A stretch of 64,000 bases of DNA, from contig JANRKS010000040.1 of assembly GCA_033763315.1 (NCBI GenBank), positions 224,001 through 288,000 of the forward strand, read 5' to 3'. The DNA is from Deltaproteobacteria bacterium (GTDB taxonomy: Bacteria; Myxococcota_A; Polyangia; Fen-1088). Of this stretch, positions 4,115-29,883 are shown piece by piece. Each line of letters opens with the position of its first letter. Within the stretch, counting starts at the first letter, position 1. The notes under the pieces are model-generated. The model saw only the letters and a program-made list of their open reading frames with translations, was not told where the DNA came from and did not search any database. The translations under genes and the position numbers were made by a program.

Positions 4115-4128
4115 GGCCGGTAGCCAAC

Positions 4129-4343: not shown

Positions 4344-4369
4344 GTAACGAGGTAGCCGCACCCGCGCTT

Positions 4370-4789: not shown

Positions 4790-4791
4790 TC

Positions 4792-6222: not shown

Positions 6223-6229
6223 GTCAGCC

Positions 6230-8301: not shown

Positions 8302-8304
8302 CCA

Positions 8305-9567: not shown

Positions 9568-9591
9568 GAAGGCCGCTGCCGACCACGCGGA

Positions 9592-10839: not shown

Positions 10840-10857
10840 GGTGTGGGCCGGCTCTTC

Positions 10858-10873
10858 AGCAAAAGGGGTGCCA
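10858..10873 (-). promoter_or_regulatory. sigma54 promoter for the dioxygenase
   Basis: Minus strand reads TGGCAC-CCCTT-TTGCT. Confidence 0.78.
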
Positions 10874-10902
10874 CCCTGGCACGGGCCCAAGAAGCGTGCG
10901 GC

Positions 10903-10918
10903 CGTCACAGCCTTGACG
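10903..10918. promoter_or_regulatory. Putative bEBP UAS palindrome
   Basis: CGTCA-cagcct-TGACG, with the same arms as 4240-4255. Confidence 0.55.
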
Positions 10919-11008
10919 CACGCAGGCGGTTTGCCTCACCCGCGCCTCGCGTTTCGCCCGCTAGGGTCTCTGAAGAGGCCTGGGAGGAGCGGCCAGAGCG
11001 CCCACCGG

Positions 11009-11024
11009 CGACATAAATCTGACG
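11009..11024. promoter_or_regulatory. Putative bEBP UAS palindrome (one mismatch)
   Basis: CGACA-taaatc-TGACG. Confidence 0.5.
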
Positions 11025-11042
11025 AACCCTGCTTAACGCGCG

Positions 11043-11058
11043 CGGCATTGGATTTGCT
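11043..11058 (+). promoter_or_regulatory. sigma54 promoter for the methyltransferase/GT operon
   Basis: CGGCAT-TGGAT-TTGCT (GG-N10-GC). Confidence 0.65.
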
Positions 11059-11072
11059 GGATGAAGGCAACC

Positions 11073-11999: not shown

Positions 12000-12005
12000 G
12001 GAACC

Positions 12006-14171: not shown

Positions 14172-15922
14172 TGGAAACCCGGCGAAGCTATTGTACGCAG
14201 TCGGACAGCAATTACCTCACGCGGGGCATTGCGCTGTGCGAATCGATGCAGCGCCATGAGAAACACCCGTACGTTATCTATTACGTATGCCTCGACGAAA
14301 TCACCCGCACAGTGCTTGAAGCGTTGCGGTTGCCCAATGTGATCCCCGTGCCTTTGCACGACGTGGAGCGTGGCAATGAGCCGCTGCGGGTGGCGCGCGG
14401 CAATCGCTCTCTGGTTGAATACTATTGGACGCTGACGGCCACCATCTTGGATTGGGTGATGGAGCAGCACCCCCAGATCCACACCCTCACTTACCTCGAC
14501 GCGGATCTATACTTCTATTCCTCTCCGGATCCGGTTTTTGAGGAGCTCAAGCAGGGATCCGTCGCCATCCATGAGCACCGGTTCTCGCCCGAACTCGCAC
14601 ACTTGGCGGTTGAGAACGGGCGCTTCAACGTGGGCCTTATGAGTTTTCGGCGCGACAGCAACGGCATGGCGGCGTTGCGCTGGTGGCGCGATCGCTGCCT
14701 TGAGTGGTGCTATGCCAAGCCCGAAGATGGCAAGCTAGGCGATCAAAAGTATCTGGAACAATTCCAAACACGTTTTAGTGGCGTGGTGGTGCTGCAACAC
14801 CTGGGCATCGCGTTGGCGCCCTGGAACCAATCGCAGTTCACGATTCAAAGCTCCCCGGGCACCACGCCCACAATCAACGGCCAGCCGCTGGTGTTTTTTC
14901 ACTTTCACGCCTTGGCCGTGCCAGATCCCGATGTGGTGATCGCAGCCAAACACGCCTATGTGGTGGGTGAGTCAGTGGTGCGCGCGTGTTACGTCCCCTA
15001 CTGTGAGGCGCTCGATCGGGCCGCCGCACGCATCAGGGGCGTTGCACCCAGCTCTTCTTTCGGCATGCACGAACCGGTGCCCGTCCGCGCTGAACACGCC
15101 CTGATCGTGAAGCAAGGCGCGCTCGGCGCCAAGCCGGGACTGGCGCCCATTGCCACGCAACGACGGCGGGTATCCATGGGTGCGTGGGACGCCTATTTCC
15201 CTGATCCCGCCGCACGACCGGTGCACACCGAACAGGCTCATGACACCCAAGGCAGCGGCGACGAGTTGCTGCTGTCTTTGCATGGCTTGCTGATCACGCG
15301 CAAGGTTGAGACATTGGTGTTCGCGGGGGCACATCTGTTTCAAGAAGCCTCGTTGCTGTTCACGTTGCTGCCGAAGCTCAAACGGGTTTACCTGTTTGAG
15401 CCGCTGCCTCAGCTCTTCGCCAAGCTCAAGCAATGGGAAGTGCGCGATCCGCGCGTGCGGGTGTTTCCTTATGCGCTCAGCGACGGCGACGGGCAGGCCA
15501 CCTTTCACGTCACCAACAACGACGCGCAATCCAGCTCGCTGCTGCCGTTGGCGAAGCACACGGAGATCTTCCCCGAAGTGGTTGAAGTGGAGAAGATCAC
15601 CGTGGAGCGAAAAACACTGGCCAGTGTGATGGCTTTTCATGATCTTGCGCCGCCAGATATGCTGTTTATCGACACGCAGGGCGCCGAGTACCAAATCCTG
15701 TCGTCGTTGTCTCAAGATCTCTTGCGTGGGGTGTCCCTCATCTACACGGAGGTGAGCACGGAAGAGCTCTATGCCGGAGGCCGCACCTTGGATGACATCA
15801 AAGCCTTGCTGGCACCCGAATTCGTGTTCGTGGCGTTTGCGCCGTTGTTTCCTCACACCCCTACGCACGGAAACGCGCTGTTTGTGAATCAAAATGCGAC
15901 GTGGCTGCTCAAGCAGGGCTAA
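14168..15922 (+). CDS. GT-A glycosyltransferase + FkbM methyltransferase fusion
   Basis: YLDADLYF, GDQKYLE, APWN in the N-half. FAGAH, FEPLP, IDTQGAEYQIL, IYTEVS in the C-half. Confidence 0.82.
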   Translation: MMETRRSYCTQSDSNYLTRGIALCESMQRHEKHPYVIYYVCLDEITRTVLEALRLPNVIPVPLHDVERGNEPLRVARGNRSLVEYYWTLTATILDWVMEQHPQIHTLTYLDADLYFYSSPDPVFEELKQGSVAIHEHRFSPELAHLAVENGRFNVGLMSFRRDSNGMAALRWWRDRCLEWCYAKPEDGKLGDQKYLEQFQTRFSGVVVLQHLGIALAPWNQSQFTIQSSPGTTPTINGQPLVFFHFHALAVPDPDVVIAAKHAYVVGESVVRACYVPYCEALDRAAARIRGVAPSSSFGMHEPVPVRAEHALIVKQGALGAKPGLAPIATQRRRVSMGAWDAYFPDPAARPVHTEQAHDTQGSGDELLLSLHGLLITRKVETLVFAGAHLFQEASLLFTLLPKLKRVYLFEPLPQLFAKLKQWEVRDPRVRVFPYALSDGDGQATFHVTNNDAQSSSLLPLAKHTEIFPEVVEVEKITVERKTLASVMAFHDLAPPDMLFIDTQGAEYQILSSLSQDLLRGVSLIYTEVSTEELYAGGRTLDDIKALLAPEFVFVAFAPLFPHTPTHGNALFVNQNATWLLKQG

Positions 15923-17679
15923 GGGCTGTTGGCAAACGCATAGAGGCGCACAAACAGCCCCGTCAAACTTGTGGGCACTCGCTCTCCGTGCCACGTTTGC
16001 AGGAGTCGACGCATATGCGTTTTGATGAGCGCCAGCTCCTCGGCTTCCGTGGTCAAACGAAACGCCTCAGGATCCAGCAAAGGCAGCAACGAATCTGCCC
16101 CCTGCTCCACCACATCACTCAACAGATCGGCCTGCCGCAGCCGATCGGCGCGCTGGTATACATCAAGCCGAGCCTCGGCCGCGTGAGCGATGCTGCTTAA
16201 CTTGTGGCGACCGTAAACGCCAATCGGTGTGTGTTGCGGCAAGGGATAGCTTTGCCGCAAATCGAATAAGGACCGGTGATGGTCAAAGGCGTACCACCGA
16301 AACGCCTGCACGATCCGTTCGGCCCGCCAGCCGTCCGCCAGCGCGCTTTCAATCGCAGCAAAATAGTGTTCGCGGCTTTCGTCACCCACATAGTTGAGCT
16401 CCGGCGGATAGAACACCAGCTCCTTGGAATAGATGACCGCAGGAATCCCGAGCAGCGCCATCTCCTTGCCCGCGCTTGACCAGGCATTAAGAAAGACGTC
16501 CGTGATCTCTGCCAGATCGAAGATCGAAATCTCGTCTGTGGGCCAGTTAACCCGTACGTTGGCGGGAAGCGTGGCGAAGAGCTGTTTTAGCTTCGCAGCG
16601 TGCTGCGAAACGTTGCCGCGAAACTCACGCGGGTGCACCCGAATGATGAAGAACAAGTCGGGACGATCGGCGACGTATTCGATCACCGCTTGCACCCAAT
16701 CAGCTTGACGGTCAAAGAGCAACCGGCCTGAATAATCAGGCAGGGCATGCACAGCCTCGGCCGCAAACCGTTCATCGTAGCTGCTCATCGTTGCAACCAA
16801 CACGCTGGCGCCGCCCGGCACGCCGAAGCGTTCGCGCAGATCGCCCACATCTTTATTGCGCGCCGATGAATACGCCCAATGACCAATGCCTTGGATCAAG
16901 GTTAGGAAGTGATCCACCGTCTGCGAGATCTCATCGCCCCCCGCGGGAATGCCACTCCACCGGGGCCAGTCGGCAATCTGCTGGGCAAAAAAGTCAAACG
17001 TGTATCGGCGCGTGAGGAAGATGTATTGAATTCGATGCGCAAGATTGGCGCCGGCGTGCAGCGAATAGCAAGGAATGCCTTGCGATTCCACGTAGTGAAG
17101 GAAGATCTGGTTTACGGGGTAAAGCGCGTTGTAAATGATTACGCGCTCGGGCTTTTCCTGTGCCACCAGCTTCTTGGCCGCCGCCAAACCAAGCAGCGTG
17201 TTGAACAGCTCGATGCGGTAGATCGCCATCTCTTCGGCACTGAAATGCAGATCAATACGCTTCGTATCAAGCAGCAGTACATAAAGCGCCGTGCGACCCA
17301 CGGGCATGCCGTCAACGAAGTAATTCTCAACGCCCTCTTTCGGGCACGCTTCGAGCATCTCGTTGGCCCAGGTGACGTCGGCCTCGGTGATGACATCCGA
17401 GAGCCGGCAGCCCGGCAACGCCATATTTGTGCGCAGCAGTTCGCCTTGAAAATGGCAAAGCGCGCACACCCGCGATCGCACCTCAAGCGAACTGCCGTGC
17501 GGCGCGCTGTTGGCGTCCATGGCCTCGCAGTGGTTTTTCAACACCTCGCCGCACGTGACGTAACAAACGTCATGCCCCGACTTCATCAGAGATTCAGCGA
17601 GCACAGCTTCGGGAAACGCATGCACCCAAATCGCTGCGCGCGGGCTTAAAAACAGCACCTTTTTCTTACTTGTGCTCAC
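15919..17679 (-). CDS. Capsule-synthesis (KpsS-like) GT-B protein, candidate nonulosonic-acid transferase
   Basis: IRVHPRE (HP motif) and SSAGKE. GTG start 9 bp after the pseI stop. N-terminal Cys cluster. Confidence 0.6.
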   Translation of the reverse strand: MSTSKKKVLFLSPRAAIWVHAFPEAVLAESLMKSGHDVCYVTCGEVLKNHCEAMDANSAPHGSSLEVRSRVCALCHFQGELLRTNMALPGCRLSDVITEADVTWANEMLEACPKEGVENYFVDGMPVGRTALYVLLLDTKRIDLHFSAEEMAIYRIELFNTLLGLAAAKKLVAQEKPERVIIYNALYPVNQIFLHYVESQGIPCYSLHAGANLAHRIQYIFLTRRYTFDFFAQQIADWPRWSGIPAGGDEISQTVDHFLTLIQGIGHWAYSSARNKDVGDLRERFGVPGGASVLVATMSSYDERFAAEAVHALPDYSGRLLFDRQADWVQAVIEYVADRPDLFFIIRVHPREFRGNVSQHAAKLKQLFATLPANVRVNWPTDEISIFDLAEITDVFLNAWSSAGKEMALLGIPAVIYSKELVFYPPELNYVGDESREHYFAAIESALADGWRAERIVQAFRWYAFDHHRSLFDLRQSYPLPQHTPIGVYGRHKLSSIAHAAEARLDVYQRADRLRQADLLSDVVEQGADSLLPLLDPEAFRLTTEAEELALIKTHMRRLLQTWHGERVPTSLTGLFVRLYAFANSP

Positions 17680-17687
17680 GGCGGTTC

Positions 17688-18743
17688 CTATTCCAGCATA
17701 TCCCAAGTCAATGCCGTGCCCCGCTTTAGCGCCCGCTTGAGCTTCCGCCCCAGCACCTGCTCGAAGTGTTTGGGGGCCATGGCGAACCCCGGACGAATGA
17801 CACGCAAGTTCTGGCGCGTGAGCGGCTCACCCGCGGCCACGTCAGCAACAACATAAAGCGACCGCCGAAACACGCGCGATCCCGCTTCGGCCTTCAATGT
17901 GCCGTACCTCACCTCACCCAACGCCTGCCAGGCACGTTCGGTTTCCACCACCAACGACGCCATTTCAGCAGGCTCAAGCGAAAACGTGGAATCCACCCCG
18001 CCATCGCGCCTCGCCAGCGTGAAGTGCTTCTCCACCACGGTGGCCCCCAGCGCCACCGCCGCCACCGCCGCGCCCACACCCATGGTGTGATCCGAAAGAC
18101 CCACTTCCACATCGAACAACTGGCGCAAATGAGGAATCGTTCGCAGGTGCGAGTTCAGCGGTGTTGCTGGATAGGTGCTCGTGCATTTGAGCAAAATAAG
18201 GTCCCGGCAACCGCCCGCGCGAGCCGTGGTCACCATCTCTTCAAGTTCGGCCAAACTGGCCATGCCGGTGGAGATGATCATCGGCTTGCCCGTGCCAGCC
18301 ACCTTGCGGATCAAAGGCAGATCGGTGTTCTCGAACGAGGCAATCTTGTAGCAAGGCACCGCAAGCGATTCCAAGAAATCAACCGCCGTTTCGTCGAACG
18401 GGGTGGAGAAACACAGCATGTTGCGTTCAGCGGCCCGCGCAAAAAGTGCCGCGTGCCAATCCCATGGCGTGTGTGCTTCTTGGTAAAGCTCGTACAGGGA
18501 GCGCCCCGCCCACAGACTCTTCGGATCGTTGATGCGAAAATCGCCCTCATCAAGATCTATGGTCATCGTATCGGCGGTGTACGTTTGCAGCTTGATCGCA
18601 TGGGCACCCGCGTCGGCCGCGGCGTCTACGATGGCCAACGCCCGCTCAAGCGATTGGTTGTGGTTGCCCGACATTTCAGCGATCACAAACGGCGCGTGAG
18701 CGAGGCCCACGGCGCGCGACCCGATGTGCAAGGTTTTGCTCAT
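17688..18743 (-). CDS. pseI: Pseudaminic acid synthase
   Basis: IAEMSGNHN, KLQTYTADT, KIASFE, GLSDHT, EKHFTL, C-terminal RRSLY/SAF domain. ATGA overlap at 18740-18743. Confidence 0.92.
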   Translation of the reverse strand: MSKTLHIGSRAVGLAHAPFVIAEMSGNHNQSLERALAIVDAAADAGAHAIKLQTYTADTMTIDLDEGDFRINDPKSLWAGRSLYELYQEAHTPWDWHAALFARAAERNMLCFSTPFDETAVDFLESLAVPCYKIASFENTDLPLIRKVAGTGKPMIISTGMASLAELEEMVTTARAGGCRDLILLKCTSTYPATPLNSHLRTIPHLRQLFDVEVGLSDHTMGVGAAVAAVALGATVVEKHFTLARRDGGVDSTFSLEPAEMASLVVETERAWQALGEVRYGTLKAEAGSRVFRRSLYVVADVAAGEPLTRQNLRVIRPGFAMAPKHFEQVLGRKLKRALKRGTALTWDMLE

Positions 18744-19462
18744 GCTTTCCCCGTGTTCTCCAAATGGCGCCCCACCATGAATGCTTCGGCCGCCTCCATG
18801 CCCACAGAAGCGCCCCGCCATAGGGCAAGATGGGTCACGGCTTCAATCGATCGCGCGTGTGGCCAGGCACGCATCTCGCTGCTGTAGCACCGTAAGGCCT
18901 CTTGCTTGCGTGGCAAGGTGGCGCCAACGTCCACAAACCACGTGGGCACAAATGGTGCGCTCGCAGGATTCCATTCGGTGCTCGACGGCACTTCAAAGAA
19001 CAGCAAGGTTTGCACAAAGAAGCCCGGCTGCGGGCGGCAAGCCGTCACCACTGCGTTGTGCACGCACGCGTGATCCACATTGAGATCCGATCGATTGTGC
19101 GTGTAAACCACCGCGGGCCGGTGCGTGGCTAAAAATGCTTCCACCACTTTAACAACGTCGAGAAGCGCCACAGTGTCCATGCGGTTGTCGGGAAAGTCGT
19201 GCAACACCAACGATGACGTTCCCAACACAGCATGCGCGGCTTCGGCCGCCTGCCGCAGTTGAGAAAGGCCGCTTTTGTGCGCCCCCACGTCGCGCGTGGG
19301 ATCTCGGCTCGTCAGCCCTTCCGCCAAAATGAGCACCGCCACGGTATCGCCCTCGGCAACGTGGCGAGCGATCACGCCGCCGCACCCCAACACTTCGTCA
19401 TCGGGGTGTGCCGCGATCACAGCCACGCGGCGAGGGCCTTTGTTGTTGACGATGGAGCTCAT
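18740..19462 (-). CDS. PIG-L/LmbE-family N-deacetylase
   Basis: AAHPDDEVLGCGG, DLNVDH, FEVPSSTEW, HARS. Confidence 0.88.
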   Translation of the reverse strand: MSSIVNNKGPRRVAVIAAHPDDEVLGCGGVIARHVAEGDTVAVLILAEGLTSRDPTRDVGAHKSGLSQLRQAAEAAHAVLGTSSLVLHDFPDNRMDTVALLDVVKVVEAFLATHRPAVVYTHNRSDLNVDHACVHNAVVTACRPQPGFFVQTLLFFEVPSSTEWNPASAPFVPTWFVDVGATLPRKQEALRCYSSEMRAWPHARSIEAVTHLALWRGASVGMEAAEAFMVGRHLENTGKA

Positions 19463-19482
19463 GAAAATCTGTGCCTTTGCCT

Positions 19483-20172
19483 TCAAGAGCCTTTGGGTTT
19501 GGGCACCACGCGCACCTGTGCCGTCAGCGATTCGCCCTGCAGGCTGGCATGGCTGAACTCGAACCTCAAGAATTCCGTTTCGATGAACGCCGCTGGATAC
19601 CCCGGGGCGTCCAACATGCGTATGAAGTCGTACGCGGCGTCAATCGATGTGACTTGCGCCATTTCACTTTCGTGCGGCCTGCGCCGGGCGAACGCCACGG
19701 CCTCTCCGGTTTGCGGCATCGGTGTTGGCCTCGTCGCCACAATTTCCGCAATCATGTCCTCGATGAGATGGGTGCCGCGGATGTAGATCTCTTCCGCGCG
19801 CCCCGCAAGCGAAAGCGGCCGCTTGAGGTAGACAGGCCCTGTATCGAGCCCCGCCTCACAGCGCAGCGCCGTCATCTGAGTGTCCTGCACGCCACGCACC
19901 AACAGGTTCTGCAGGGGGCTGCCGCCGCGGCCAAACGGCACGTCGGTCATGTGGAAGATCACGCACGTAAACGTGTCAAACACGCTGGCGGGGATCCGAT
20001 GAGACCAGTGCGGAAAGAACACCCAGTCGGGCGCGAACGCCTTCAGCGCCTCCGCGGTGAGCTGTTCGGGAGCGGTGATGTGCCTTGTGACGGCGCCGCA
20101 CCTGGCAGCCACGCGCTCGGCAAGGCCGGGCACCCAATCCCTCGAAGTGGCGATGACGATCCGTGGCTTCAT
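19483..20172 (-). CDS. Sugar N-formyltransferase (Fmt-like)
   Basis: FPHWS, IFHMTDVPFGRGGSPLQN, LDTGPVY, IRMLDAPGYP. Confidence 0.85.
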   Translation of the reverse strand: MKPRIVIATSRDWVPGLAERVAARCGAVTRHITAPEQLTAEALKAFAPDWVFFPHWSHRIPASVFDTFTCVIFHMTDVPFGRGGSPLQNLLVRGVQDTQMTALRCEAGLDTGPVYLKRPLSLAGRAEEIYIRGTHLIEDMIAEIVATRPTPMPQTGEAVAFARRRPHESEMAQVTSIDAAYDFIRMLDAPGYPAAFIETEFLRFEFSHASLQGESLTAQVRVVPKPKGS

Positions 20173-21902
20173 GACGACCGCCGGTCCTTCTCAATACGCA
20201 ACACGTACCGCACACCGTGGTGATCGAAGAACGCAGGATAGGCGTCGTTGTCCACCACCCGCAGCAAGTTGAATTGTTCAGCCAACGTGAGCGCAGGATC
20301 GAGGCGGCTGTCTTCGGCGCGCCTTCGGGGATAGGTGCTTGGGGTGCCCCTTTGCTCGCACGCCGTTTGTACAGCCTCGGGGTAATTCTGCACCCACCAC
20401 TGGCACAGGCGCAACGTAGCCTCGGCTTGCAAGGCGCGCAACTCATCGACCAGCTCATGACCTTGCAGCTGCATTTGGGTCTGCGCATAGATCGGCCCGC
20501 TGTCCACGCTGAGCTGTGCCTCGAACAAAGTTACGGGTATGCAAGCCTTGCCCTCAAGAACTTGCCACGTCATCGGTGACCAGCCACGGCCGCGTGGCAG
20601 ATCACTTTCATGCACCACCACATTGTGCACGTTTCGCGCAAGAATCGCCGCGCCAGCCAGCTGGCCGCAACTCAAGAACAGCGCACAATCGCCCATCCCC
20701 AGCGCGTTGACTTGATGCACCCACGTCACCTCGTGGCCAGCCGCCTTCCACCCATCAAGCAAAGGTGGCAGAAAGCGGTTAAGCCAGCTGTGCTCATCGG
20801 AAACAACGTTTAAGCGGAGGCGACGATCAAGCGCCGCCGCCGCGCGCGCGGCGCCCTGCCCGTCGACCAGACGCTGGCCTCGTTGCGACAGGCGCGCAAG
20901 CAACGAGGGCCGCGCCAGCATTCGCGCGATGGCCGAGGCCACAGCGTCAATGGTCAGAGCCTCCGCGTTCCCCAAAAACCACGCAAACCGTTCGGCACCC
21001 GCGCCCTTGCCAATCTCTATCTGGTTGTGGGCGATCGCAATCAGGATCGCAGGCAGCCCCAAACAGCACCGTTCCCACGTGGAGATGCCTGGGGCGCCAA
21101 TCATAAGATCCGCTGCCTGCATCAACGCCGCCATCTGGTCCGTCTGCACGTGAAGTTGCGCACGGGGCAAAGCCGCGCACAAGCGCGCCACCTCTTCCGC
21201 CTGCGGGTGGCTCTTGCCGATCACCACATCGATGTGAAGGTTCTCGCTCGCCACACGCTGCAGGGCCTGCAGCACCAAGCCAGTGACGTTGTGTGGATCG
21301 CCCCCGCCCAGGCTCACCAGCAAGCGACGCGCACTTACGGCTGGGTGTGGCCACAGGCGCGGCTTTTGGCGCCGCAGCTCGAGAAACGCGGGCCGCAACA
21401 GTGCAAAACGTGGCCCCAGCAACAGCCGACAATTCGTGGGCACAAGGCCCTCGTAACGGCGGGGTTGCAACTGCAAATTGGCGTCCAGCAGAACATCGGC
21501 GTCGTGAGGGCGATCGGCCAAATCGTCGATCACAGCCACTTGCTGCGCAAAGGCACGCAGGTTCCGCTCAGCACGCGCGTCGAGCGCGTAGTGATCCACC
21601 ACCGCCCAATCCCAGCTTGACAAGGACCCAAGCGCAGCGTTGACCTGTTGCACTTCTTCGTCGAGGCTCGCGCCTAACCAGCGTGCGTGTCGTGGCCCCG
21701 CCGCCGTCGGATTGCCCAAAGGCAAAGCAATCACTTCAAACCCTTGCGCCTTCACATGCTCGGAAAAGTGCCCAGGATGCAGCCGCGACAGAAACACAAC
21801 TTGGGCACCGCGTGCCCGCAAAGCGGCTGCCAGCGCCAAGCAGCGCATGACGTGGCCAGAGCCAATCTCGGTCGAGGCGTCAGCCCTGACCAAAACCCTC
21901 AT
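20169..21902 (-). CDS. pseG: PseG UDP-sugar hydrolase fused to a C-terminal formyltransferase domain
   Basis: RADASTEIGSGHVMRCLAL, VVDHY, GISTWERCCLG. C-terminal HESDLPRGRGWSP...VDSGPIY. ATGA overlap with pseC. Confidence 0.88.
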   Translation of the reverse strand: MRVLVRADASTEIGSGHVMRCLALAAALRARGAQVVFLSRLHPGHFSEHVKAQGFEVIALPLGNPTAAGPRHARWLGASLDEEVQQVNAALGSLSSWDWAVVDHYALDARAERNLRAFAQQVAVIDDLADRPHDADVLLDANLQLQPRRYEGLVPTNCRLLLGPRFALLRPAFLELRRQKPRLWPHPAVSARRLLVSLGGGDPHNVTGLVLQALQRVASENLHIDVVIGKSHPQAEEVARLCAALPRAQLHVQTDQMAALMQAADLMIGAPGISTWERCCLGLPAILIAIAHNQIEIGKGAGAERFAWFLGNAEALTIDAVASAIARMLARPSLLARLSQRGQRLVDGQGAARAAAALDRRLRLNVVSDEHSWLNRFLPPLLDGWKAAGHEVTWVHQVNALGMGDCALFLSCGQLAGAAILARNVHNVVVHESDLPRGRGWSPMTWQVLEGKACIPVTLFEAQLSVDSGPIYAQTQMQLQGHELVDELRALQAEATLRLCQWWVQNYPEAVQTACEQRGTPSTYPRRRAEDSRLDPALTLAEQFNLLRVVDNDAYPAFFDHHGVRYVLRIEKDRRSS

Positions 21903-23059
21903 GCGCCGCTTTCCTTGATCGCCTCTTTTAAGGCTGCGATGCACACGTCTTGCTCGGCAAAAGACAACGACGCATAAAGCGGCATAGATATCGCCTCGGC
22001 ATAGTAGCGTTCCGCTTCAGGAAACATGCCGTCACGGAAGCCCAACGCCATAAAGTCAGGCTGCGTATGCACGGGGATGTAGTGCACATTCACGCCGATG
22101 TCAGCCGCGCGCAATGACTCGAAGATCTCTCGCCGCTGTGCCGCCGGCACGCGCACCACGAACAGATGCCACGAAGGGTCGGCATCGGAATGAACACCCT
22201 GCACGTGCACAAGGGTGTGTGCCAGGGCGGCGCGATAGCGTTCCACCAACACGCGGCGGCGGGTCACGAATGTTTGCAGCCGGTGCATTTGGCTTGCGCC
22301 CAACGCCGCCTGGATGTCGGTCATGCGGTAGTTGAAGCCAAGCTCAACCTGCTGGTAATACCAAGGGCCATGCGACTCCCCCTGCATCAGCGCACGCTCG
22401 CGCGTGATGCCATGGGTTCGCAGCCGCAATAGGCGTTCGAACAACGCTTGGCTCTTCGTGACCACCACGCCGCCTTCGCCCGTGGTCACGATCTTGACCG
22501 GATGAAAGCTGAAGATGGTGGCATCGGAGTGATTGCAGTTGCCTACGGGTGCGCCCTTGTAACTCGCGCCAATGGCATGCGAAGCGTCTTCCAGCAAGCG
22601 AAAGCCGTAACGGTCTGCCAATGCGGCAAACTCGGCCATCGGGCAGGACTGCCCCGCGAAGTGCACGGGGATCACAAGCTTTGGCATCAGCCCGCCGCTG
22701 CGCTGCGTGCGTTCGAGCTTGTCCGCCAAGGCGGCCACGCTCATATTCAAGGTTGCTGGATCAATATCCACGAAGTCCACACGTGCGCCGCAGTAGCGCG
22801 CGCAGTTGGCGCTCGCCACAAACGTATTGGGCGACGTCCACACCATATCCCCTGGCCCCACGTCCATCGCCAAACAAGCCAAATGCAAGGCCGCGGTGGC
22901 AGAGCTCACGGCCACGGCGAAAGGCACCGCGGCGGCCTGCGCCACAGCCGTCTCAAAACGCGCGATCGCTGGACCCTGCGTAAGCCAATCCGAACGCAAC
23001 ACCGCCTCCACGGCTTCAATGTCGTCGTCATCAATGGACTGGCGTCCGTACGGGATCAT
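21899..23059 (-). CDS. pseC: UDP-4-amino-4,6-dideoxy-AltNAc transaminase
   Basis: MIPYGRQSI, SDWLTQGP, SFHPVK, GFNYRMTDIQAALG. Confidence 0.92.
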   Translation of the reverse strand: MIPYGRQSIDDDDIEAVEAVLRSDWLTQGPAIARFETAVAQAAAVPFAVAVSSATAALHLACLAMDVGPGDMVWTSPNTFVASANCARYCGARVDFVDIDPATLNMSVAALADKLERTQRSGGLMPKLVIPVHFAGQSCPMAEFAALADRYGFRLLEDASHAIGASYKGAPVGNCNHSDATIFSFHPVKIVTTGEGGVVVTKSQALFERLLRLRTHGITRERALMQGESHGPWYYQQVELGFNYRMTDIQAALGASQMHRLQTFVTRRRVLVERYRAALAHTLVHVQGVHSDADPSWHLFVVRVPAAQRREIFESLRAADIGVNVHYIPVHTQPDFMALGFRDGMFPEAERYYAEAISMPLYASLSFAEQDVCIAALKEAIKESGA

Positions 23060-24054
23060 AGGGCGGATCCGTTAAACTCTTTCAGCTCAGCGGTGGTCAA
23101 GAAGTGCGGGTTCGTATCGGAGGCATATTTGAAGCCTTCGTCCACGGGCTTGCCACTTTCACCTAGGGCATTGGTGGAAAACTCCGTGACGTTTGCCAGC
23201 TGCAGCGTGGGAGCGATGACGAAGTGATCTGCAAACTCATACGTGTGTGTGCTGTCGTCGCGGGAGATCATCGTCTCATGCAGCTTTTCACCGGGACGAA
23301 TGCCGATCACACGGTGAGGCATCCCAGGAGCGATTGCCTCCACCAAATCCAAGATGCGCACGGAAGGAATTTTCGGCACGAAGATCTCGCCGCGCCGCAT
23401 GCGTTGAAAATTCTTTAGAACGAAATCTACGCCGACCTGCAGCTTCAGCCAAAAGCGGGTCATGCGTGGATCAGTCACCGGCAGGACTGTGGCGCCTTCG
23501 GCAACCAAGCGCTTGAAGAACGGCACCACCGACCCGCGCGAGCCCACGACGTTGCCATACCGAACCACGGCAAAACGCGTGCGGTGCGTGCCAACGATGT
23601 TGTTGGCCGCCACAAACAACTTATCGGAAAGCAGCTTGGTGGCCCCGTAAAGGTTGATAGGGCTTGAGGCTTTGTCGGTGGATAGGGCGATCACCTTCTC
23701 AACACCGTTTTCGATGGCCGCGGCGATCACGTTTTCAGCACCCGAAACGTTGGTACGAATAAACTCGGTGGGATTGTATTCAGCCGCCGGCACTTGTTTG
23801 AGCGCGGCCGCGTGAACCACAAAATCGACGTCGCGCATGGCTTGGCGCAAGCGGGCGGCGTCGCGAACGTCACCCAAGAAGTAACGCATACAAGGTGCAT
23901 TGAACTCCTGCGACATATCGAACTGTTTCAGCTCGTCGCGCGAGAACACCACCACGCGCCGGGGCTTGTAGCGTTGCAAAATGGTGCGAATGAATTTTTG
24001 ACCAAAGGATCCCGTGCCACCCGTGATCAAGATCGACTTCTCGTTAAGCATCAC
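23056..24054 (-). CDS. pseB: UDP-GlcNAc 4,6-dehydratase (inverting)
   Basis: ITGGTGSFG, SRDELKQ, AALKQVPAAEYNP, STDKA, YGATK, GIRPGEKLHE. Confidence 0.95.
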   Translation of the reverse strand: MMLNEKSILITGGTGSFGQKFIRTILQRYKPRRVVVFSRDELKQFDMSQEFNAPCMRYFLGDVRDAARLRQAMRDVDFVVHAAALKQVPAAEYNPTEFIRTNVSGAENVIAAAIENGVEKVIALSTDKASSPINLYGATKLLSDKLFVAANNIVGTHRTRFAVVRYGNVVGSRGSVVPFFKRLVAEGATVLPVTDPRMTRFWLKLQVGVDFVLKNFQRMRRGEIFVPKIPSVRILDLVEAIAPGMPHRVIGIRPGEKLHETMISRDDSTHTYEFADHFVIAPTLQLANVTEFSTNALGESGKPVDEGFKYASDTNPHFLTTAELKEFNGSAL

Positions 24055-24095: not shown

Positions 24096-25223
24096 TCAAA
24101 CCTGGAAATCGCCTTCCAAATAGAAAACTGAATTAAACGTCTTCGCAAACAGCCGGTACCCCTGCGCTCGCATGAAGCCGTGCACGGTTGAACCCAACAC
24201 GGCTGCGACATCCGACTGCAAACACTCCACCACCACACACTGCGGGCGAAAGCGTTCCCAATCGTTTGATTCAAGTACCTTCAGGTCCAAGCCTTCCACG
24301 TCCACCGACATGAAGTGGATGGGCGCCCCAGGTACCAAGCACTGATCCAGGAGATCGGCCAGCGGCACCACATCCAGCTCGCGTGTTTGCACAACGTGGT
24401 ACGCCCCACTCTCGCGGCTACGGGTCAGCTCTTCATCGAACGAATTCAATGCGGGATCATTGAACATGTAATACGTGAGCTTGCCGTAGACGTTCGAAAC
24501 ACCGCAGGCAACGTTCACGTCCCCGGGCCGCACGGCAGCGAACGCCGCCATAAGTTCGGGGTTTGGCTCAATGTTTACGCCCCGCCAGCCTTGCAGATAG
24601 AACCGGTGCGTGTTCGAGAAGCGCAAGGGGTGATGCGCGCCCACGTCCACGTAAAGCCCCAACTTCTGCCGGTCGAATAGGCGCGCCAGAACAAGGTCCT
24701 CGCCCTCCTGGCTGTAAGACACGTTCATAAACTCTGTGTGGGGATGGCTCGTCACCGCGTGAGTTGGAACAGCTAAACGGGGACCACTGTAGATCAGAGG
24801 CTTATCGAGTAGGCCCAGACGTGACACGGCTTGCTCCGGTTGAGCCGCCAAAGCCGCCATCAGGCCCACCACCTGCACATCGAACGGATGACGACGCAAG
24901 AACGTTTGCACCACGTCTGACGCCCGTTCGGGTGCCCCCGCGTTCATGAAACACAACGCCAACAACGCCACGCTTACAGCGTTGTCAGGCTCCAGCTCTA
25001 GGGCCCGCGCCAGCGCAGCGGCCGCGGTATCAAAGTCAGGCGACCGAAGGATGGGTAGTTTACCGCCGGCCGCACGACACAACGACCACGCCAGACCGTG
25101 GTAGGCATGCACGTCGCGCTCGTTTTCTTTGCACGCCTGCAAGAACCGTTCGGCGGCTTTGGCATAGTCGTGCCGGGCCAGTAAGGCGCGCGCCTCAACC
25201 AGCGTGGGGGTTCGTGCAAGCAT
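24096..25223 (-). CDS. TPR + FkbM-family methyltransferase
   Basis: TPR-like N-terminus (RDVHAYHGL, ALELEPDN). SYSQEGEDL, VDVGAHHP, SVDVEGLDL. Confidence 0.85.
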   Translation of the reverse strand: MLARTPTLVEARALLARHDYAKAAERFLQACKENERDVHAYHGLAWSLCRAAGGKLPILRSPDFDTAAAALARALELEPDNAVSVALLALCFMNAGAPERASDVVQTFLRRHPFDVQVVGLMAALAAQPEQAVSRLGLLDKPLIYSGPRLAVPTHAVTSHPHTEFMNVSYSQEGEDLVLARLFDRQKLGLYVDVGAHHPLRFSNTHRFYLQGWRGVNIEPNPELMAAFAAVRPGDVNVACGVSNVYGKLTYYMFNDPALNSFDEELTRSRESGAYHVVQTRELDVVPLADLLDQCLVPGAPIHFMSVDVEGLDLKVLESNDWERFRPQCVVVECLQSDVAAVLGSTVHGFMRAQGYRLFAKTFNSVFYLEGDFQV

Positions 25224-25340: not shown

Positions 25341-26255
25341 GTGAAGTCGAAACCAAAGACCATCACCGCCCCGGGCGCCGACTATTCCATTCGTGTTCTG
25401 GGCGCGCACAACTCCGCACTCCGCGATTTTTACCATGCCTTGCTGTTGTGGCGTTGGCCCACAACTGTGGTGGCGATCGCCGCCATGTTCATGCTGGCAA
25501 ACACGGTGTTCGCGTTTGCTTACATGCTGACCGACGGCGTGGCCAACGTTCACCCCGGTTCCTTTTTGGACTGCTTCTTCTTCAGCGTGCAGACGATGGG
25601 CACGATTGGTTACGGCTATATGTATCCGGCCACAACGACCGCCGAAGTGGTGGTGGTGGCGGAAACCATCACCAGCGTGACGCTCACAGCCTTGGCCACG
25701 GGCCTCGTGTTCGCAAAGTTCTCGCGCGCCAGCGCTCGTGTGTTGTTCAGCGATACGGTCACCATCAGCCCGATGAATGGCGTGCCCACGCTGCGTTTGC
25801 GCCTGGGCAACCAGCGTAACAACCAGATCATTGACGCCCGGGTGAAGGTGCAGCTGCTGCGCACGGAGAAGCTTAAGGAAGGTGGAGTGTTCTACCGCAT
25901 GGTGGACGTGAACCTCGTCCGTGAAAACATCCTCTCGCTGTCACGATCGTGGACCGCTTTGCACGTGATCGATGAATCAAGCCCGTTGTGGCAGGCTACC
26001 CCAGAGTCATTGGCCTCCGATGAAGCCGAGCTGCACGTGTTGTTGATGGGACTCGACGACACAACGTTGCAGCCCGTCCACGCTCTGCATCGGTATTTTT
26101 CGCAGCAGATCTTGTGGGGTCGGCAACACGTGGACATCCTCACGGAACGCGACAGCGGCGTGCTGGAGCTCGATCTGCGCCGCTTCCACGAACACGCGCC
26201 CACCGAGCCCACGCCCTCGTTTCCTTATCCAAAAACCGTATCAACAAAGCCTTAA
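25341..26255 (+). CDS. Inward-rectifier potassium channel (KirBac-like)
   Basis: FFFSVQTMGTIGYG selectivity filter, two TM helices, cytoplasmic Kir domain (WTALHVIDESSPL). Confidence 0.92.
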   Translation: MKSKPKTITAPGADYSIRVLGAHNSALRDFYHALLLWRWPTTVVAIAAMFMLANTVFAFAYMLTDGVANVHPGSFLDCFFFSVQTMGTIGYGYMYPATTTAEVVVVAETITSVTLTALATGLVFAKFSRASARVLFSDTVTISPMNGVPTLRLRLGNQRNNQIIDARVKVQLLRTEKLKEGGVFYRMVDVNLVRENILSLSRSWTALHVIDESSPLWQATPESLASDEAELHVLLMGLDDTTLQPVHALHRYFSQQILWGRQHVDILTERDSGVLELDLRRFHEHAPTEPTPSFPYPKTVSTKP

Positions 26256-26385: not shown

Positions 26386-29300
26386 ATGCGTGGCTTTCGG
26401 TGTGTGGTGGTTTTTGCGGTGTTGGTGGGGACGGCCGCATGTACGGTCAAGGCAACGCCCACGGGCACACCAGGTCCTGTGGACGGTGGCCAGGTCGTAG
26501 AGGCCGGTGTTCCTGGTCGACCCGATCCGGTCGCGTGCGATCCGTCCGCCGTCCTCAAGGACGTGGCCGAATCATGCACGTGCAACGCAGAGTGCGGCAC
26601 CGGCCGTTGTGTGGATGGCGTGTGCTGCGCCAGCGCTTGCGACGGCCTGTGTGAGGCCTGCAATGTGCCCGGAAAAGTGGGGGCCTGCGCTCCCATCCCC
26701 GCCGGCCTGCCGCCCGTGGTGGCCGGTCAATGCAAAGTCGACGACGTCAGCACGTGCGGCTTTGATGGCACCTGCAATGGGAACCGCGGTTGCAGAAAAT
26801 ATCCCGAAGGCACCGCCTGTAAAAAAGGGATATGTGATGGAGCCACTGTAAAAGGCGAAAAGGTGTGCCGGCTTGGCCAATGCACTGTGGGCCCCGACAC
26901 CGTGTGCAGCCCCTTCGGTTGTGATCCTGCAAAATCGGCCTGCTTTGAGACGTGCACCGACGATGGGCAGTGCTCGGCTTCGCAAAAGTGTGCAAGCGGC
27001 AGTTGTGGCCTACGAAACATCGGCGCCAAGTGCGGTGGCAACACGGAGTGCGAATCAGGATTTTGCGCCGATGGCGTTTGCTGCAACACCGCGTGTGATG
27101 ACGCGTGCGTTACCTGCAACCAATTGTTGACCAAGGGCGAGTGCCGGCCGGTGATGGCCGAGCAACCCGATCCGCACAATGTCTGCAAAGACGAAGGCGC
27201 TGCCACATGCGGACAAAGCGGAAGCTGCGATGGTCAGGGTGGTTGCGCCAAATATAGCGCCTCCACACCTTGCCGCGCGGCACGCTGCGAAGGTGCAAAC
27301 GCGATTCCCGCCAGCACCTGTGATGGCAAAGGTTCCTGCCTGGCCGCCAGCCAAGTGGCTTGCGCCCCTTTCGCGTGTTCGGGCAACGCTTGCAAAACCA
27401 CGTGCAACGACGACACCGACTGTTCGGGCGCCGTCTGCATCAACAACAGCTGCGGGCTGCGTGGCAAGGGACAGAACTGCACGGCCGCTTCCCAGTGCGC
27501 TTCAGGTTTTTGTTCCGACGGCGTTTGCTGTGACAGTGCATGCACAGGGCAATGCAAGTATTGCGCTTCAGCGCAAGCGCGCGGCAGCTGCGTCAACGTG
27601 GCAGCCGACACCGCTGATCCGCGCGCCGCTGGCGCCAACCCATCAGCCGAGGCCTGCGTGGCTTCCGACCCGCGCACCTGTGGTCGAAATGGCATGTGCA
27701 ACGGCAATGGCGCCTGCCAGTTGTGGAACAAGAACACGATGTGCGAAGACCAGAGCTGCTCGGCCGCACAAAACACCTATTACGCGGCCAAAATGTGTGA
27801 CGGCGCAGGGTCGTGCAAACCTCAAGACAACGGCTCGCGCACCTGTTTTCCGAATAAGTGCAACGGCTCAGCGTGTGGCATTGCGTGTGGTTCATCAAAC
27901 GATTGCGTGGCGCCTAACGAATGCGTCAATGGGCGGTGTGGCCCCAAAGCGATCGGCGCCGTGTGTAGCGCCGACAACCAATGTGACAGCGGCTTTTGCC
28001 GCCAAGGCGTTTGCTGCCAAACCGACTGCAAAAGCAGTTGCTATTCATGTGCGCTGGCCAGCACCCGCGGCGTATGTTCGGCCGTACCCGCGGGCGAGCA
28101 GGATCCTGCGAAGGTGTGCACGGCCGATGGCGTGGCCAGCTGTGATCGCGATGGCATGTGCAACGGCTCGGGAGGGTGTCGCCTCTACGCCGCAGGGCAA
28201 GTGTGCGCGGGGGCCACGTGCGTGAACGGCACCGCGACCGGCGTTTCTAAGTGCGACGGCAAAGGCGAATGCCAAAAAGGCGCCGTGCGTGCGTGCGATG
28301 CCTATAAGTGCAATTCCGATGGCACCGCTTGCTTTGAATCCTGCACAGACAACAGCCAATGCGTCAGCCCGCGGGTGTGCGTGGGCACTTCGTGTGGCGC
28401 CAAACCAAACGGCGCCGAATGTCCGAATGGCGCGTCTGAATGCCAATCCGGGATATGCGTGCAGGGGGTGTGTTGCAACGAAGCTTGTGATGGTGTCTGC
28501 AAAACCTGCAAAGGCACAAAAGCGGGCACTTGCAGCAACGTGGCTCAAGGCGCAGCCGATCCCGCAGGCAGGTGTGCCCCTGCGGCGGGCGCGGCCGTGT
28601 GTGGCAACGATGGCACATGCAACGGCAACGGAGCCTGTGCGAAGGCGCCCAACACAGTTGTGTGCCGCAACCAAACCTGCCCCGCCGATTCAAACACCTT
28701 CACCCGATCGGCCAGATGTGACGGCGCCGGGAATTGCCCTGCACCCGCCACCGTGGATTGCGGCTCGATCAAATGCGACGCCACATCAAACGCATGCCTC
28801 ACGGGCTGCCAAAACGACGGCCAATGCGTCTCTGGAAACATCTGTGACGCGGCCACGATGTCGTGCGGAGGGCTCAAACCCAACGGCGCGGATTGCACGG
28901 CAAACCGCCAATGCGCGTCTGCGAAATGTGTAGAGGGCGTGTGTTGCGGCGGCTTGGCCGCGGACCAAAACGCTTGCCCCGCCTGTCAAAGTTGCAAGAT
29001 CGAAGGGCAAAAAGGCACCTGCCGAAGCGCGCCTGCGGGCGCGGCAAACGCGGGCGCGTGCCCCGCAGGCACGGGATTTTGTGGCGCGCAAACGTGCAAC
29101 GGGGCGGGCGCCTGCGTGCAGGCTAACCCGGCCGGCACGAGCTGCGGCGCACAAACGTGCGTTGACGGCAACAAGGTACAAAGCCAAACGTGTAACGCCA
29201 GCGGCATGTGCGTGAACGGTCAGCTCACCACGTGCGAACAGGGCTACCGCTGCGCCGACGGCAAGTGCAAGACCTCTTGCACCGTTGCCACTGCCAGCAC

Positions 29301-29883
29301 CGATTGCACCGCGGGCAACATCTGTATCGCCAACCGCTGCGCACCACCCGTGGTCGACGGAGGTCGCTGCGCAGTCAACACCGATTGTGTAAACGGCGCC
29401 TGCATCAACCAGATTTGTTGCAACCGCGCTTGCAATGGTCGTTGCGAAAGCTGCAGCGCCGCGGGCCAATGCACGGTGGATGCTGCCTGTCTTGCCAAGT
29501 GCACCTCCAACGCCGACTGCGCCAGCAACCAGATGTGCGATCCCAGCACGATGATGTGCGTCGCAAAAGTGACCAAGTTTCCACGCGGAGCCGATTGTCA
29601 GAACGCTGGGCAATGCGAAACCGGCTTCTGTTCACAAGGCGTGTGTTGCGACTCAAATTGTACCGGTATGTGCAAAACATGTGCGGCCGTCGGCGTCGAT
29701 CGGGGGATCTGTAAGAACGTGCCGAAGACGCCAGAGCTCCGCTGTGGCACCGAATGCTCCGCGAATAAAAAGACCGTGATACCGCTGCTTTGCGACGGCA
29801 ACGGCGGATGCACGGCCAAAGGCAAGGGCACGGATTGTGACAAGAACGACCGATGCGATGGCACAATGTGCGTTCCTAAGTAG
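26386..29883 (+). CDS. Large cysteine-rich repeat lipoprotein
   Basis: Lipobox TAAC. Eight C-x2-G-x-C-x2-GVCC-like repeats. Confidence 0.85.
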   Translation: MRGFRCVVVFAVLVGTAACTVKATPTGTPGPVDGGQVVEAGVPGRPDPVACDPSAVLKDVAESCTCNAECGTGRCVDGVCCASACDGLCEACNVPGKVGACAPIPAGLPPVVAGQCKVDDVSTCGFDGTCNGNRGCRKYPEGTACKKGICDGATVKGEKVCRLGQCTVGPDTVCSPFGCDPAKSACFETCTDDGQCSASQKCASGSCGLRNIGAKCGGNTECESGFCADGVCCNTACDDACVTCNQLLTKGECRPVMAEQPDPHNVCKDEGAATCGQSGSCDGQGGCAKYSASTPCRAARCEGANAIPASTCDGKGSCLAASQVACAPFACSGNACKTTCNDDTDCSGAVCINNSCGLRGKGQNCTAASQCASGFCSDGVCCDSACTGQCKYCASAQARGSCVNVAADTADPRAAGANPSAEACVASDPRTCGRNGMCNGNGACQLWNKNTMCEDQSCSAAQNTYYAAKMCDGAGSCKPQDNGSRTCFPNKCNGSACGIACGSSNDCVAPNECVNGRCGPKAIGAVCSADNQCDSGFCRQGVCCQTDCKSSCYSCALASTRGVCSAVPAGEQDPAKVCTADGVASCDRDGMCNGSGGCRLYAAGQVCAGATCVNGTATGVSKCDGKGECQKGAVRACDAYKCNSDGTACFESCTDNSQCVSPRVCVGTSCGAKPNGAECPNGASECQSGICVQGVCCNEACDGVCKTCKGTKAGTCSNVAQGAADPAGRCAPAAGAAVCGNDGTCNGNGACAKAPNTVVCRNQTCPADSNTFTRSARCDGAGNCPAPATVDCGSIKCDATSNACLTGCQNDGQCVSGNICDAATMSCGGLKPNGADCTANRQCASAKCVEGVCCGGLAADQNACPACQSCKIEGQKGTCRSAPAGAANAGACPAGTGFCGAQTCNGAGACVQANPAGTSCGAQTCVDGNKVQSQTCNASGMCVNGQLTTCEQGYRCADGKCKTSCTVATASTDCTAGNICIANRCAPPVVDGGRCAVNTDCVNGACINQICCNRACNGRCESCSAAGQCTVDAACLAKCTSNADCASNQMCDPSTMMCVAKVTKFPRGADCQNAGQCETGFCSQGVCCDSNCTGMCKTCAAVGVDRGICKNVPKTPELRCGTECSANKKTVIPLLCDGNGGCTAKGKGTDCDKNDRCDGTMCVPK

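Follow-up and report, generated by a model that had tools for sequence, protein, structure and literature searches.

A close-packed operon of six minus-strand genes lies at 17688-24054 of a 64,000-nt stretch of the Deltaproteobacteria bacterium assembly GCA_033763315.1 (contig JANRKS010000040.1, positions 224,001 to 288,000; hereafter the window) and encodes, in order, PseB, PseC, a fusion of PseG with a formyltransferase-like (Fmt-like) domain named Fmt2, a stand-alone Fmt-like protein named Fmt229, an LmbE-family deacetylase and PseI. The operon is a variant of the known pseudaminic acid (Pse) pathway, built from a widespread uncharacterised module. We tentatively propose, with confidence a little short of even, that it constitutes a non-canonical pathway in which one Fmt-like unit caps the nitrogen that becomes N7 of Pse, and LmbE and an Fmt-like protein exchange the substituent at N5. 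The di-N-formyl sugar Pse5Fo7Fo would be the simplest product, predicted rather than demonstrated. A broader proposal, which is more doubtful, is that LmbE and an Fmt-like protein of the type seen in PDB entry 1ZGH, lacking the catalytic Asn, form a widespread N5 "N-acyl editing" module, that the sister Fmt-like family has repeatedly displaced the PseH acyltransferase (a GNAT), and that the di-N-formyl Pse of this genome is perhaps modified further by a distal set of genes. Comparison of related loci gives real support both to an Fmt-like unit in the PseH slot and to the LmbE/Fmt swap pair.

The genes were called with Pfam and NCBIfam equivalog models, applied with their cut-offs to the open reading frames (ORFs) of the window. 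PseB (23056..24054), the inverting UDP-GlcNAc 4,6-dehydratase, matches TIGR03589 with 544 bits (cut-off 408) and Polysacc_synt_2 with 338 bits; PseC (21899..23059), the aminotransferase leading to UDP-4-amino-4,6-dideoxy-beta-L-AltNAc, matches TIGR03588 with 519 bits (cut-off 424). The fusion is read from a 591-aa ORF (20169-21944), in which PseG takes up residues 15-312 and the Fmt-like match residues 419-503. Its PseG domain (20790..21902), the UDP-sugar hydrolase, scores 302 bits against TIGR03590 (cut-off 154) and aligns with the Campylobacter jejuni PseG (PDB 3HBM), the GxGH motif included; its C-terminal domain, Fmt2 (20169..20789), reaches 24.8 bits against Formyl_trans_N (cut-off 26.1). 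Fmt229 (19483..20172), a 229-aa protein of the 1ZGH type, matches PF21553 with 72.5 bits (cut-off 27). The LmbE/PIG-L family de-N-acetylase (18740..19486) matches PF02585 with 88 bits (cut-off 28), and its translation contains AHPDDE, the metal-binding motif of such enzymes. Pseudaminic acid synthase, PseI (17688..18743; raw ORF 17688-18821), scores 496 bits against TIGR03586 (cut-off 340). All are encoded on the minus strand. Family membership shows PseB, PseC, PseG and PseI to be the enzymes of the canonical Pse steps.

The junctions, read from the DNA, are ATGA start-stop overlaps between PseB and PseC, PseC and PseG, the fusion and Fmt229, and LmbE and PseI, so that true 4-nt overlaps, by which the genes are coupled in translation, are found at four of the five junctions of the operon; that between Fmt229 and LmbE is either a TTGA overlap or else the gene starts at an ATG 22 nt further downstream. 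On this reading, the long overlaps in the raw ORF list are over-extended starts. Met15 (ATG at 21902) is the true start of the PseG fusion, and Met27 of the long ORF (ATG at 18743) is the likely start of PseI, the TIGR03586 match beginning at residue 44. The gene order and the mostly overlapping junctions that the first-pass annotation had described are borne out, the former by four core equivalogs over their cut-offs and by Pfam matches for the rest. The GC content of the operon equals that of the rest of the window.

The proposed pathway would begin with PseB and PseC, which together would yield UDP-4-amino-4,6-dideoxy-beta-L-AltNAc. One Fmt-like unit would cap the 4-amine, the later N7 of Pse; this is most likely the PseG-fused Fmt2, since it occupies the slot in which relatives have a PseH-like GNAT or PseJ. 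PseG is expected to remove UDP and LmbE to strip the GlcNAc-derived 2-N-acetyl group (N5 of Pse), and the N5 amine would then be re-acylated from N10-formyl-tetrahydrofolate (formyl-THF) by the remaining Fmt-like protein, which is conserved as the neighbour of LmbE. PseI would condense the hexose with phosphoenolpyruvate to give the nonulosonate. CMP activation would probably be carried out by a cytidylyltransferase::aminotransferase encoded on contig 7, and transfer, possibly onto flagellin or a surface glycan, would probably be carried out by a KpsS-like protein encoded downstream of pseI, which is a lead only. Apart from one distal GNAT, the two nitrogens have only the pair of Fmt-like units to serve them, so that formyl would be expected on both under either assignment of the units.

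One set of comparisons concerns Fmt229 and its neighbours. A scan of species-representative genomes with the Fmt229 family gave at least 583 relatives among the 600 matched stretches listed; 80 loci from many phyla were kept, and their six-frame ORFs were searched with the window proteins. A clean Fmt229 ORF is present in 78 of the 80, and 60 have full flanks. LmbE is found in 75 of the 78 clean-ORF loci and in 60 of the 60 with full flanks, directly adjacent to Fmt229 in 62/78 and 49/60, and PseI in 71/78 and 56/60, respectively; these and the following locus counts are descriptive only, since the loci come in part from related, non-independent genomes and from truncated contigs. Fmt229-LmbE-PseI is a conserved tailoring module of Pse clusters, and in the window, too, Fmt229 abuts LmbE inside a Pse cluster. 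In the lineage of this bacterium the operon is an accessory glycan module of patchy distribution: of 30 relatives, 4 gave an Fmt229 match, and the fusion protein, used as query, matched in 8 of 30 by its PseG part only (at most 43% identity), with no match at E<=1e-10 in two same-genus genomes.

The tight pairing of Fmt229 with LmbE could also be read as a make-and-break pair. In the L-Ara4N pathway, formylation by ArnA is transient and ArnD deformylates the product; by analogy, formylation might here pull the PseC transamination forward, with LmbE later taking off the formyl group and leaving the amine free or otherwise modified. We regard this as improbable. The adjacency in 62 of 78 loci fits it, as do the free-amine nonulosonates described for Ca. 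Kuenenia stuttgartiensis in the available part of the report (10.64898/2026.04.20.719630). However, the Kuenenia sugars described there retain formyl, the LmbE-family enzymes named in the NCBIfam search are de-N-acetylases of GlcNAc-type substrates, and in most of the loci compared a PseH-like GNAT would already cap the amine. An Ignavibacteriales metagenome-assembled genome (MAG; locus L034), having a PseJ orthologue as well as Fmt229 and LmbE, is also a poor fit to simple protection and deprotection.

The assignment of Fmt2 to the N7 step draws on what else is found in its place and on a classification of the GNATs. A first set of hidden Markov models (HMMs; g3 and g4) was rejected as classifiers, since they mixed clades and true PseH rows fell in g3, and a tree was used instead. 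From a quick IQ-TREE run on 75 GNAT domains, in which 37 of 72 inner branches were unresolved, only four major clades were used. Clade A includes the contig-7 GNAT of this genome, clade B is Bacteroidota-specific, clade C is true PseH (TIGR03585 over cut-off), and clade D, with 47 rows, resembles PseH weakly and is in many cases fused to PseG. Of the ten loci having clade C, only one has clade D as well, which fits one shared role, the PseH step. The Fmt229-LmbE-PseI module is usually accompanied by a GNAT: 17 of 19 long PseG ORFs are PseG::GNAT fusions, and in many other loci a ~150-aa GNAT lies directly upstream of Fmt229. The substrate channelling that had been read into the PseG::Fmt2 fusion is suggested by it to no greater extent than by PseG-acyltransferase fusions in general.

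Fmt2 itself is present in 20 of the 80 loci: fused to PseG in five, directly upstream of Fmt229 in ten (four PseG fusions included) and parted from Fmt229 by pseI alone in seven. A PseH-like (clade C or D) GNAT accompanies 47 of the 60 loci without Fmt2 versus 7 of the 20 with it; Fmt2 without such a GNAT, the state of the window, is seen in 13/80. Two swaps between relatives say more than these counts. The Ignavibacteria loci L013 and L015 are collinear, with amino-acid identities of 60-92%, but just before Fmt229 the former has a D-type GNAT (9507-10004) and the latter Fmt2 (9024-9932). Such a natural swap could be used for functional tests. Within the Bacteroidota, B and D GNATs in L079 and L091 stand against a B GNAT and Fmt2 in L054, L057 and L067. 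In L034, the slot (9381-9992) is filled by a PseJ orthologue (PDB 6CI2, E 6e-72) with its N-x-H motif kept, in the order pseG, PseJ orthologue, Fmt229-LmbE-PseI, and the surrounding 9 kb are free of GNAT genes. A biochemically validated family of N7 formyltransferases thus takes part in the same two-formyltransferase logic, and L034 is a still cleaner candidate for di-N-formyl pseudaminic acid than the window. The slot before Fmt229 can hold PseH, a PseH-like GNAT, PseJ or Fmt2.

The absence of PseH was followed through the whole assembly (7.63 Mb in 40 contigs, 90.85% complete). As had been noted at first pass, there is no GNAT within 17688-24054, and the genome-wide search found no pseH either: the best match to TIGR03585 is 36 bits against a cut-off of 93, several generic GNATs scoring 30-36 bits. 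HMMs built from the PseH-like GNATs of related loci gave at most 35 bits anywhere in the assembly; in the related loci the GNATs found with them scored 44-310 bits, training members included. An ordinary pathway would require a pseH in the ~9% of the genome that is missing from the assembly, or one of the generic GNATs doing its work, the product being Pse5Ac7Ac and the Fmt-like proteins and LmbE serving another amino sugar of the neighbouring glycan island, for which an NDP-hexose 2,3-dehydratase, an oxidoreductase and a DegT aminotransferase (4693-8301) would provide a pathway. We consider this improbable: the Fmt-like and LmbE genes lie between pseC and pseI with 4-nt overlaps, one of them fused to PseG, the same module recurs inside Pse clusters across many phyla, and for the PseH-like GNAT clades no member was found in the assembly.

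The other step for which no equivalog was found is CMP activation. PseF (TIGR03584) has a best score of 29.7 bits across the assembly (cut-off 206), and the genome has only two CTP_transf_3 domains, on contigs 7 and 21. The contig-7 domain (114 bits) is fused to a class-III aminotransferase in a 693-aa protein, which is encoded in a three-gene operon (93224-96918; L011:9225-12919) with the clade-A GNAT and an aldo-keto reductase. Over its full length, the fusion has 44% identity with one inside the Pse cluster of a Nitrospirota genome, and the reductase is 35% identical to a neighbouring gene of that cluster. In many related loci, pseC and pseG flank the trio of aldo-keto reductase, cytidylyltransferase and class-III aminotransferase, and in a family relative (G004) a cytidylyltransferase::aminotransferase fusion is found directly upstream of pseG. 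In the two same-genus genomes, a search swamped by generic class-III aminotransferases gave no homologue of the fusion over its full length. In view of these homologues in Pse clusters elsewhere, the contig-7 operon is probably the displaced remainder of the pathway, CMP activation included. It can be speculated that its aminotransferase and reductase create a further amine on the sugar. Its GNAT was considered as the missing PseH and rejected: it belongs to the separate clade A, which co-occurs with the PseH-like clade D in four loci (L013, L033, L053 and L080), and it is thus unlikely to be PseH.

The contig-21 genes were likewise rejected as the remainder of the Pse pathway, as they make up a different, second ulosonic-acid cluster with no GNAT or Pse genes (L098:8529-15592). 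It encodes a KdsB-like cytidylyltransferase, a split transketolase, a class-III aminotransferase, an SDR protein, a KdsC/KDN-9-P-like phosphatase, a 310-aa NeuB-like synthase without the SAF domain and an OlsE-like lipid hydroxylase. The genes near this cluster include those for GT4 glycosyltransferases, a flippase-like protein and an HpnN-like transporter.

The two Fmt-like units are related to each other and to known formyltransferases to different degrees. Fmt229 belongs to the 1ZGH/PF21553 family; in addition to the PF21553 domain it has a full-length match to 1ZGH (E 2e-63, residues 4-223 aligned), with which it has the motif FHMTD-PFGRGGSPLQNL in common. Of the 8000 candidates scored, at least 7228 are relatives of it at E<=1e-10, and their source names are methionyl-tRNA formyltransferase or hypothetical protein. 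His74, Asp77 and Asp110 are invariant in the family. Fmt2 is a paralogue of Fmt229 (21% identity), and 1ZGH is its best PDB match whether the search is made from the sequence alone (6.9e-8) or from the family profile (2.9e-20); in the profile ranking, sugar N-formyltransferases and ArnA come next. It has no PF21553 match at E<=0.001 and is read, with 1ZGH as its best solved match, as a sister family of 1ZGH/PF21553 and not a member of it. The profile used (A3) was a clean one of 12 Fmt2 sequences; an earlier profile (A2), in which PseJ ranked second, was rejected, since it held the PseJ orthologue of L034 and an ArnA-like row, and A3 puts 1ZGH first. The window Fmt2 retains all invariant residues of its family, including the His in motif VVVHESDLPRGRGWSP and the Asp in VDSGPIY. 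In both families the P-x-G-[RK]-G-x-S-P and D-x-G loops are kept together with the catalytic His and Asp. Beyond 1ZGH, the solved homologues with the formyltransferase fold are Fmt, ArnA, 10-formyl-THF dehydrogenase and sugar N-formyltransferases.

Several observations weigh against the di-N-formyl pathway, and the first group of them concerns the chemistry of these units. The canonical formyltransferase catalytic triad is Asn-His-Asp, and its Asn is absent throughout both families, the position being Ile or Val in that of Fmt229 and Val in that of Fmt2. Neither unit reaches the threshold of Formyl_trans_N (PF00551), Fmt229 scoring 23.7 bits and both lying below 26.1. Nor is Fmt2 an orthologue of PseJ, which ranks 37th (6CI2, E 4.8e-6) with the clean profile and is missing from the single-sequence PDB matches of Fmt2 at E<=0.01 and of Fmt229 at E<=1. 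No assay of any 1ZGH-family enzyme and no reported function for 1ZGH were found in the literature searched, the sole paper naming 1ZGH being unrelated. Of the two formyltransferases claimed in the first-pass annotation, homology to solved formyltransferase-fold proteins stands, and a Pfam-level assignment, an intact triad and orthology to PseJ do not. It may be that the Fmt-like proteins are not amine N-formyltransferases at all and use another reaction or donor (hydrolysis, a thiol or carrier, another acyl group), so that the substituents would not be formyl. We regard this as unlikely, even though, besides the points just given, the hydrophobic residue at the Asn position is shared, among the alignments printed, by the N-domain structures of 10-formyl-THF dehydrogenase, a domain that either hydrolyses the formyl group or transfers it to a thiol. 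That enzyme has Ile at the very position in the PDB alignments and uses 10-formyl-THF, so the substitution alone is no argument against the use of formyl-folate. Going by what is generally known of their chemistry, all characterised members of the fold in the PDB match lists use formyl-folate, and in both Fmt-like families His, Asp and folate-loop motifs are retained. In L034 a PseJ orthologue sits in the same slot, and formylated nonulosonates are described, in the accessible part of the Kuenenia report, from organisms with deacetylase and formyltransferase clusters (10.64898/2026.04.20.719630).

The second group comes from the related loci. A PseH-like GNAT is retained in 7 of the 20 Fmt2 loci, so that Fmt2 is not simply a PseH substitute. 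In L019 (5843-8062) and L076 (7681-9969), PseG, GNAT and Fmt2 form a single polypeptide, and in L063 a GNAT::Fmt2 fusion again brings a PseH-like GNAT and Fmt2 together; with Fmt229, the candidate N-acyltransferases of such loci come to three, against two amines. In L092 (10012-12099) LmbE is fused to Fmt2, and it shares one ORF with a D-type GNAT in L028 (8058-9212) and L086 (10659-11843), which leaves the transferase partner of LmbE ambiguous. These multi-domain fusions were read from six-frame ORFs and may include frameshift artefacts. The claim that one formyltransferase replaces PseH is therefore backed by the slot swaps (L013/L015 and the Bacteroidota), the PseG::Fmt2 fusion and L034, and qualified by the GNATs kept beside Fmt2; likewise, the pairing of the deacetylase with a second formyltransferase holds for LmbE and Fmt229 as neighbours, and the LmbE fusions blur it. 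Further points come from the genome and from the literature. pseH may lie in the missing part of the assembly, the distal clade-A GNAT, class-III aminotransferase and aldo-keto reductase may alter the product, and no published report of a di-N-formyl nonulosonate was found in the literature searched, where Pse5Fo7Fo, Pse5Fo7Ac, Leg5Fo7Fo and "5-N-formyl-pseudaminic" gave nothing and "diformamido" matched unrelated chemistry.

Alternatively, only one nitrogen may be formylated, the other being a free amine or one acylated or methylated by the clade-A GNAT or an FkbM-type methyltransferase. One Fmt-like unit would then be redundant, non-catalytic (e.g., a dimer partner) or active on a third amine produced by the distal aminotransferase and reductase. 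This alternative is possible, if rather unlikely. It agrees with the Kuenenia CMP-nonulosonates, described in the available text as having one formyl and one free amine, with +14 Da forms (10.64898/2026.04.20.719630), and with the 13/80 loci in which Fmt229 and LmbE occur while Fmt2 and a PseH-like GNAT are both lacking, a methyltransferase filling the slot in some of them. The seven Fmt2 loci with a PseH-like GNAT, having more acyltransferases than the two known amines, fit as well, and Pse clusters repeatedly contain the distal set of GNAT, cytidylyltransferase::aminotransferase and aldo-keto reductase. On the other hand, clade-A GNATs stand beside D-type GNATs in the four loci named above and are thus probably not the N7 or N5 acyltransferase, the full set of family-invariant residues in the window Fmt2 speaks against decay, and the slot swaps indicate that Fmt2 does the job of the GNAT.

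Genes on both sides of the operon may contribute to the glycan. A gene for a protein with TPR repeats and an FkbM-type methyltransferase domain (24096..25223, minus strand; Methyltransf_21 70 bits) lies 41 nt upstream of pseB on the same strand and is a possible member of the operon. Downstream, a GTG start 9 nt after the pseI stop opens a minus-strand gene for a 586-aa protein (15919..17679), probably the final gene of the operon. The protein has no Pfam match and, in the NCBIfam search, only a weak match to the BFO_1060 glycosyltransferase model; in the ESM Atlas it compares with Capsule_synth clusters at a feature score of 0.96-0.97 and a TM-score of 0.64-0.70. Its weak homologues adjoin Pse genes in L013, L015, L031, L034, L054, L080 and L081. 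From this structural comparison, the KpsS/LipB-like (Capsule_synth-like) glycosyltransferase is a candidate pseudaminyl transferase.

The Pse operon is adjoined by a glycan island at 1724-15922. It encodes a triple-GT2 protein (1724-4114), an NDP-hexose 2,3-dehydratase (4693-6222), a GFO-type oxidoreductase (6230-7204), a DegT aminotransferase (7195-8301) and a TPR protein with Glyco_trans_1_2 and methyltransferase domains (12006-14171); another GT2 protein and two FkbM methyltransferases are also held there. The sugar genes suggest a second sugar, 2,6-dideoxy or 3-amino, in the same glycan. With FkbM-type methyltransferases in the island counted as three, methylated forms of Pse are possible. 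The protein at 12006-14171 has an FlmG-like architecture and recalls the FlmG flagellin glycosyltransferases, as far as these are described in the available part of a preprint (10.1101/2022.03.25.485807). The genome has two flagellin genes, and together with the FlmG-like protein they make flagellin a possible acceptor.

Elsewhere in the window, genes of the planctomycete-type families DUF1552 (HXXSHH) and DUF1592/1588/1595/1585/1587 occur as four pairs and a lone DUF1552 at the window edge (258-1727, 36301-39455, 43269-46324, 49487-52621 and 60138-63142). As to phylum, they do no more than hint at Planctomycetota or one close to it. On the plus strand, a bacterial inward-rectifier-type K+ channel (IRK_C and Ion_trans_2; 25341-26255) is followed by a gene for a 1165-aa protein (26386-29883) to which no Pfam or NCBIfam family was matched.

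Pseudaminic acids are found on flagella, capsules and lipopolysaccharides, where charge, antigenicity and phage recognition are determined by their N-acyl groups. If the proposal is true, di-N-formyl pseudaminic acid would be a sugar new to the literature searched. The operon is a minimal natural case, a cluster without a GNAT and with two Fmt-like units and one deacetylase. It also gives a clean entry to the function of a family of more than 7000 proteins (E<=1e-10) for which a structure has been solved and whose name is wrong. Since the family occurs in the context of Pse clusters, the name "methionyl-tRNA formyltransferase" carried by 1ZGH is almost certainly a mis-annotation, and it needs correction even if the prediction fails. 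The enzymatic making of N-formyl Pse is a possible use.

Compared with the canonical CMP-Pse5Ac7Ac pathway of C. jejuni and Helicobacter pylori (PseB-PseC-PseH-PseG-PseI-PseF), the window has PseB, PseC, PseG and PseI in common. In contrast, no PseH or PseF equivalog was found in the genome, the two Fmt-like units and LmbE are additions, and the likely cytidylyltransferase, a fusion with a class-III aminotransferase, is encoded on another contig. The closest precedent for the N7 step is PseJ (Anoxybacillus kamchatkensis, PDB 6CI2/6CI4), in which a formyltransferase fold likewise stands in place of PseH. However, the window units are not its orthologues and do not have the N-x-H Asn kept by PseJ and by L034, and here there are two units and a deacetylase. 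In the part of PMC11040635 available, PseJ is credited with Pse5Ac7Fo, PseF is said to accept Pse5Ac7Fo and Pse7Fo5(3RHb), and most N-modifying enzymes are stated not to be known; according to the same paper, the Pse of Pseudomonas aeruginosa serotype O7 has hydroxybutyryl at N5 and formyl at N7. The structural-genomics protein 1ZGH (Clostridium thermocellum), the source of PF21553, is the full-length match of Fmt229 and the best solved relative of Fmt2.

For the substituent change at N5, no published description of a route was found, and the available portions of the Tannerella, Pseudoalteromonas and FlmG preprint literature are silent on N5 editing. The Shewanella sfmABCDE genes were dropped as a precedent, as the accessible part of PMC3765264 mentions no LmbE or formyl genes. 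Geobacillus flagellin islands, in the sections available, have pseC, pseF, pseG and pseI without pseH, with formyltransferases in some island types (PMC5109656). ArnA and ArnD resemble the window in that an enzyme of the Fmt fold, with a de-N-acylase as its partner, acts on what a DegT-family sugar aminotransferase has made, and ArnA is among the better solved matches; ArnD, however, is of a different deacetylase family from LmbE, which here most likely removes acetyl.

Two nonulosonate systems come nearer to the proposed exchange. Halorubrum sp. PV6 makes 5-N-formyl-legionaminic acid with a predicted formyltransferase in the cluster and is thus like the window proposal in that the GlcNAc-derived N5 acetyl is replaced by formyl; it differs in being archaeal, in using the Leg pathway, in having no deacetylase described in the part of the paper available, and in its formyltransferase of ~317 aa, a length inferred from a 953-bp reverse-transcription PCR product (PMC6137143). 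In Ca. Kuenenia stuttgartiensis, according to the available part of the source, CMP-nonulosonates with one formyl and one free amine are accompanied by a deacetylase and a formyltransferase in the cluster (10.64898/2026.04.20.719630). This is like the window in the type of cluster and in formyl taking the place of acetyl; unlike it, the sugars are described as legionaminic-type, with a single formyltransferase and one amine left free. A Ca. Brocadia sp. MAG (L066) has two nonulosonate clusters side by side (1659-11429 and 12854-18432). The first, of Pse type, contains LmbE together with both Fmt proteins of the 1ZGH type; in the second, a NeuB-like synthase is joined by a full-length ArnA-like formyltransferase (295 aa) and by another LmbE. 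These clusters may bear on the formylated free-amine sugars of Kuenenia, a related anammox bacterium.

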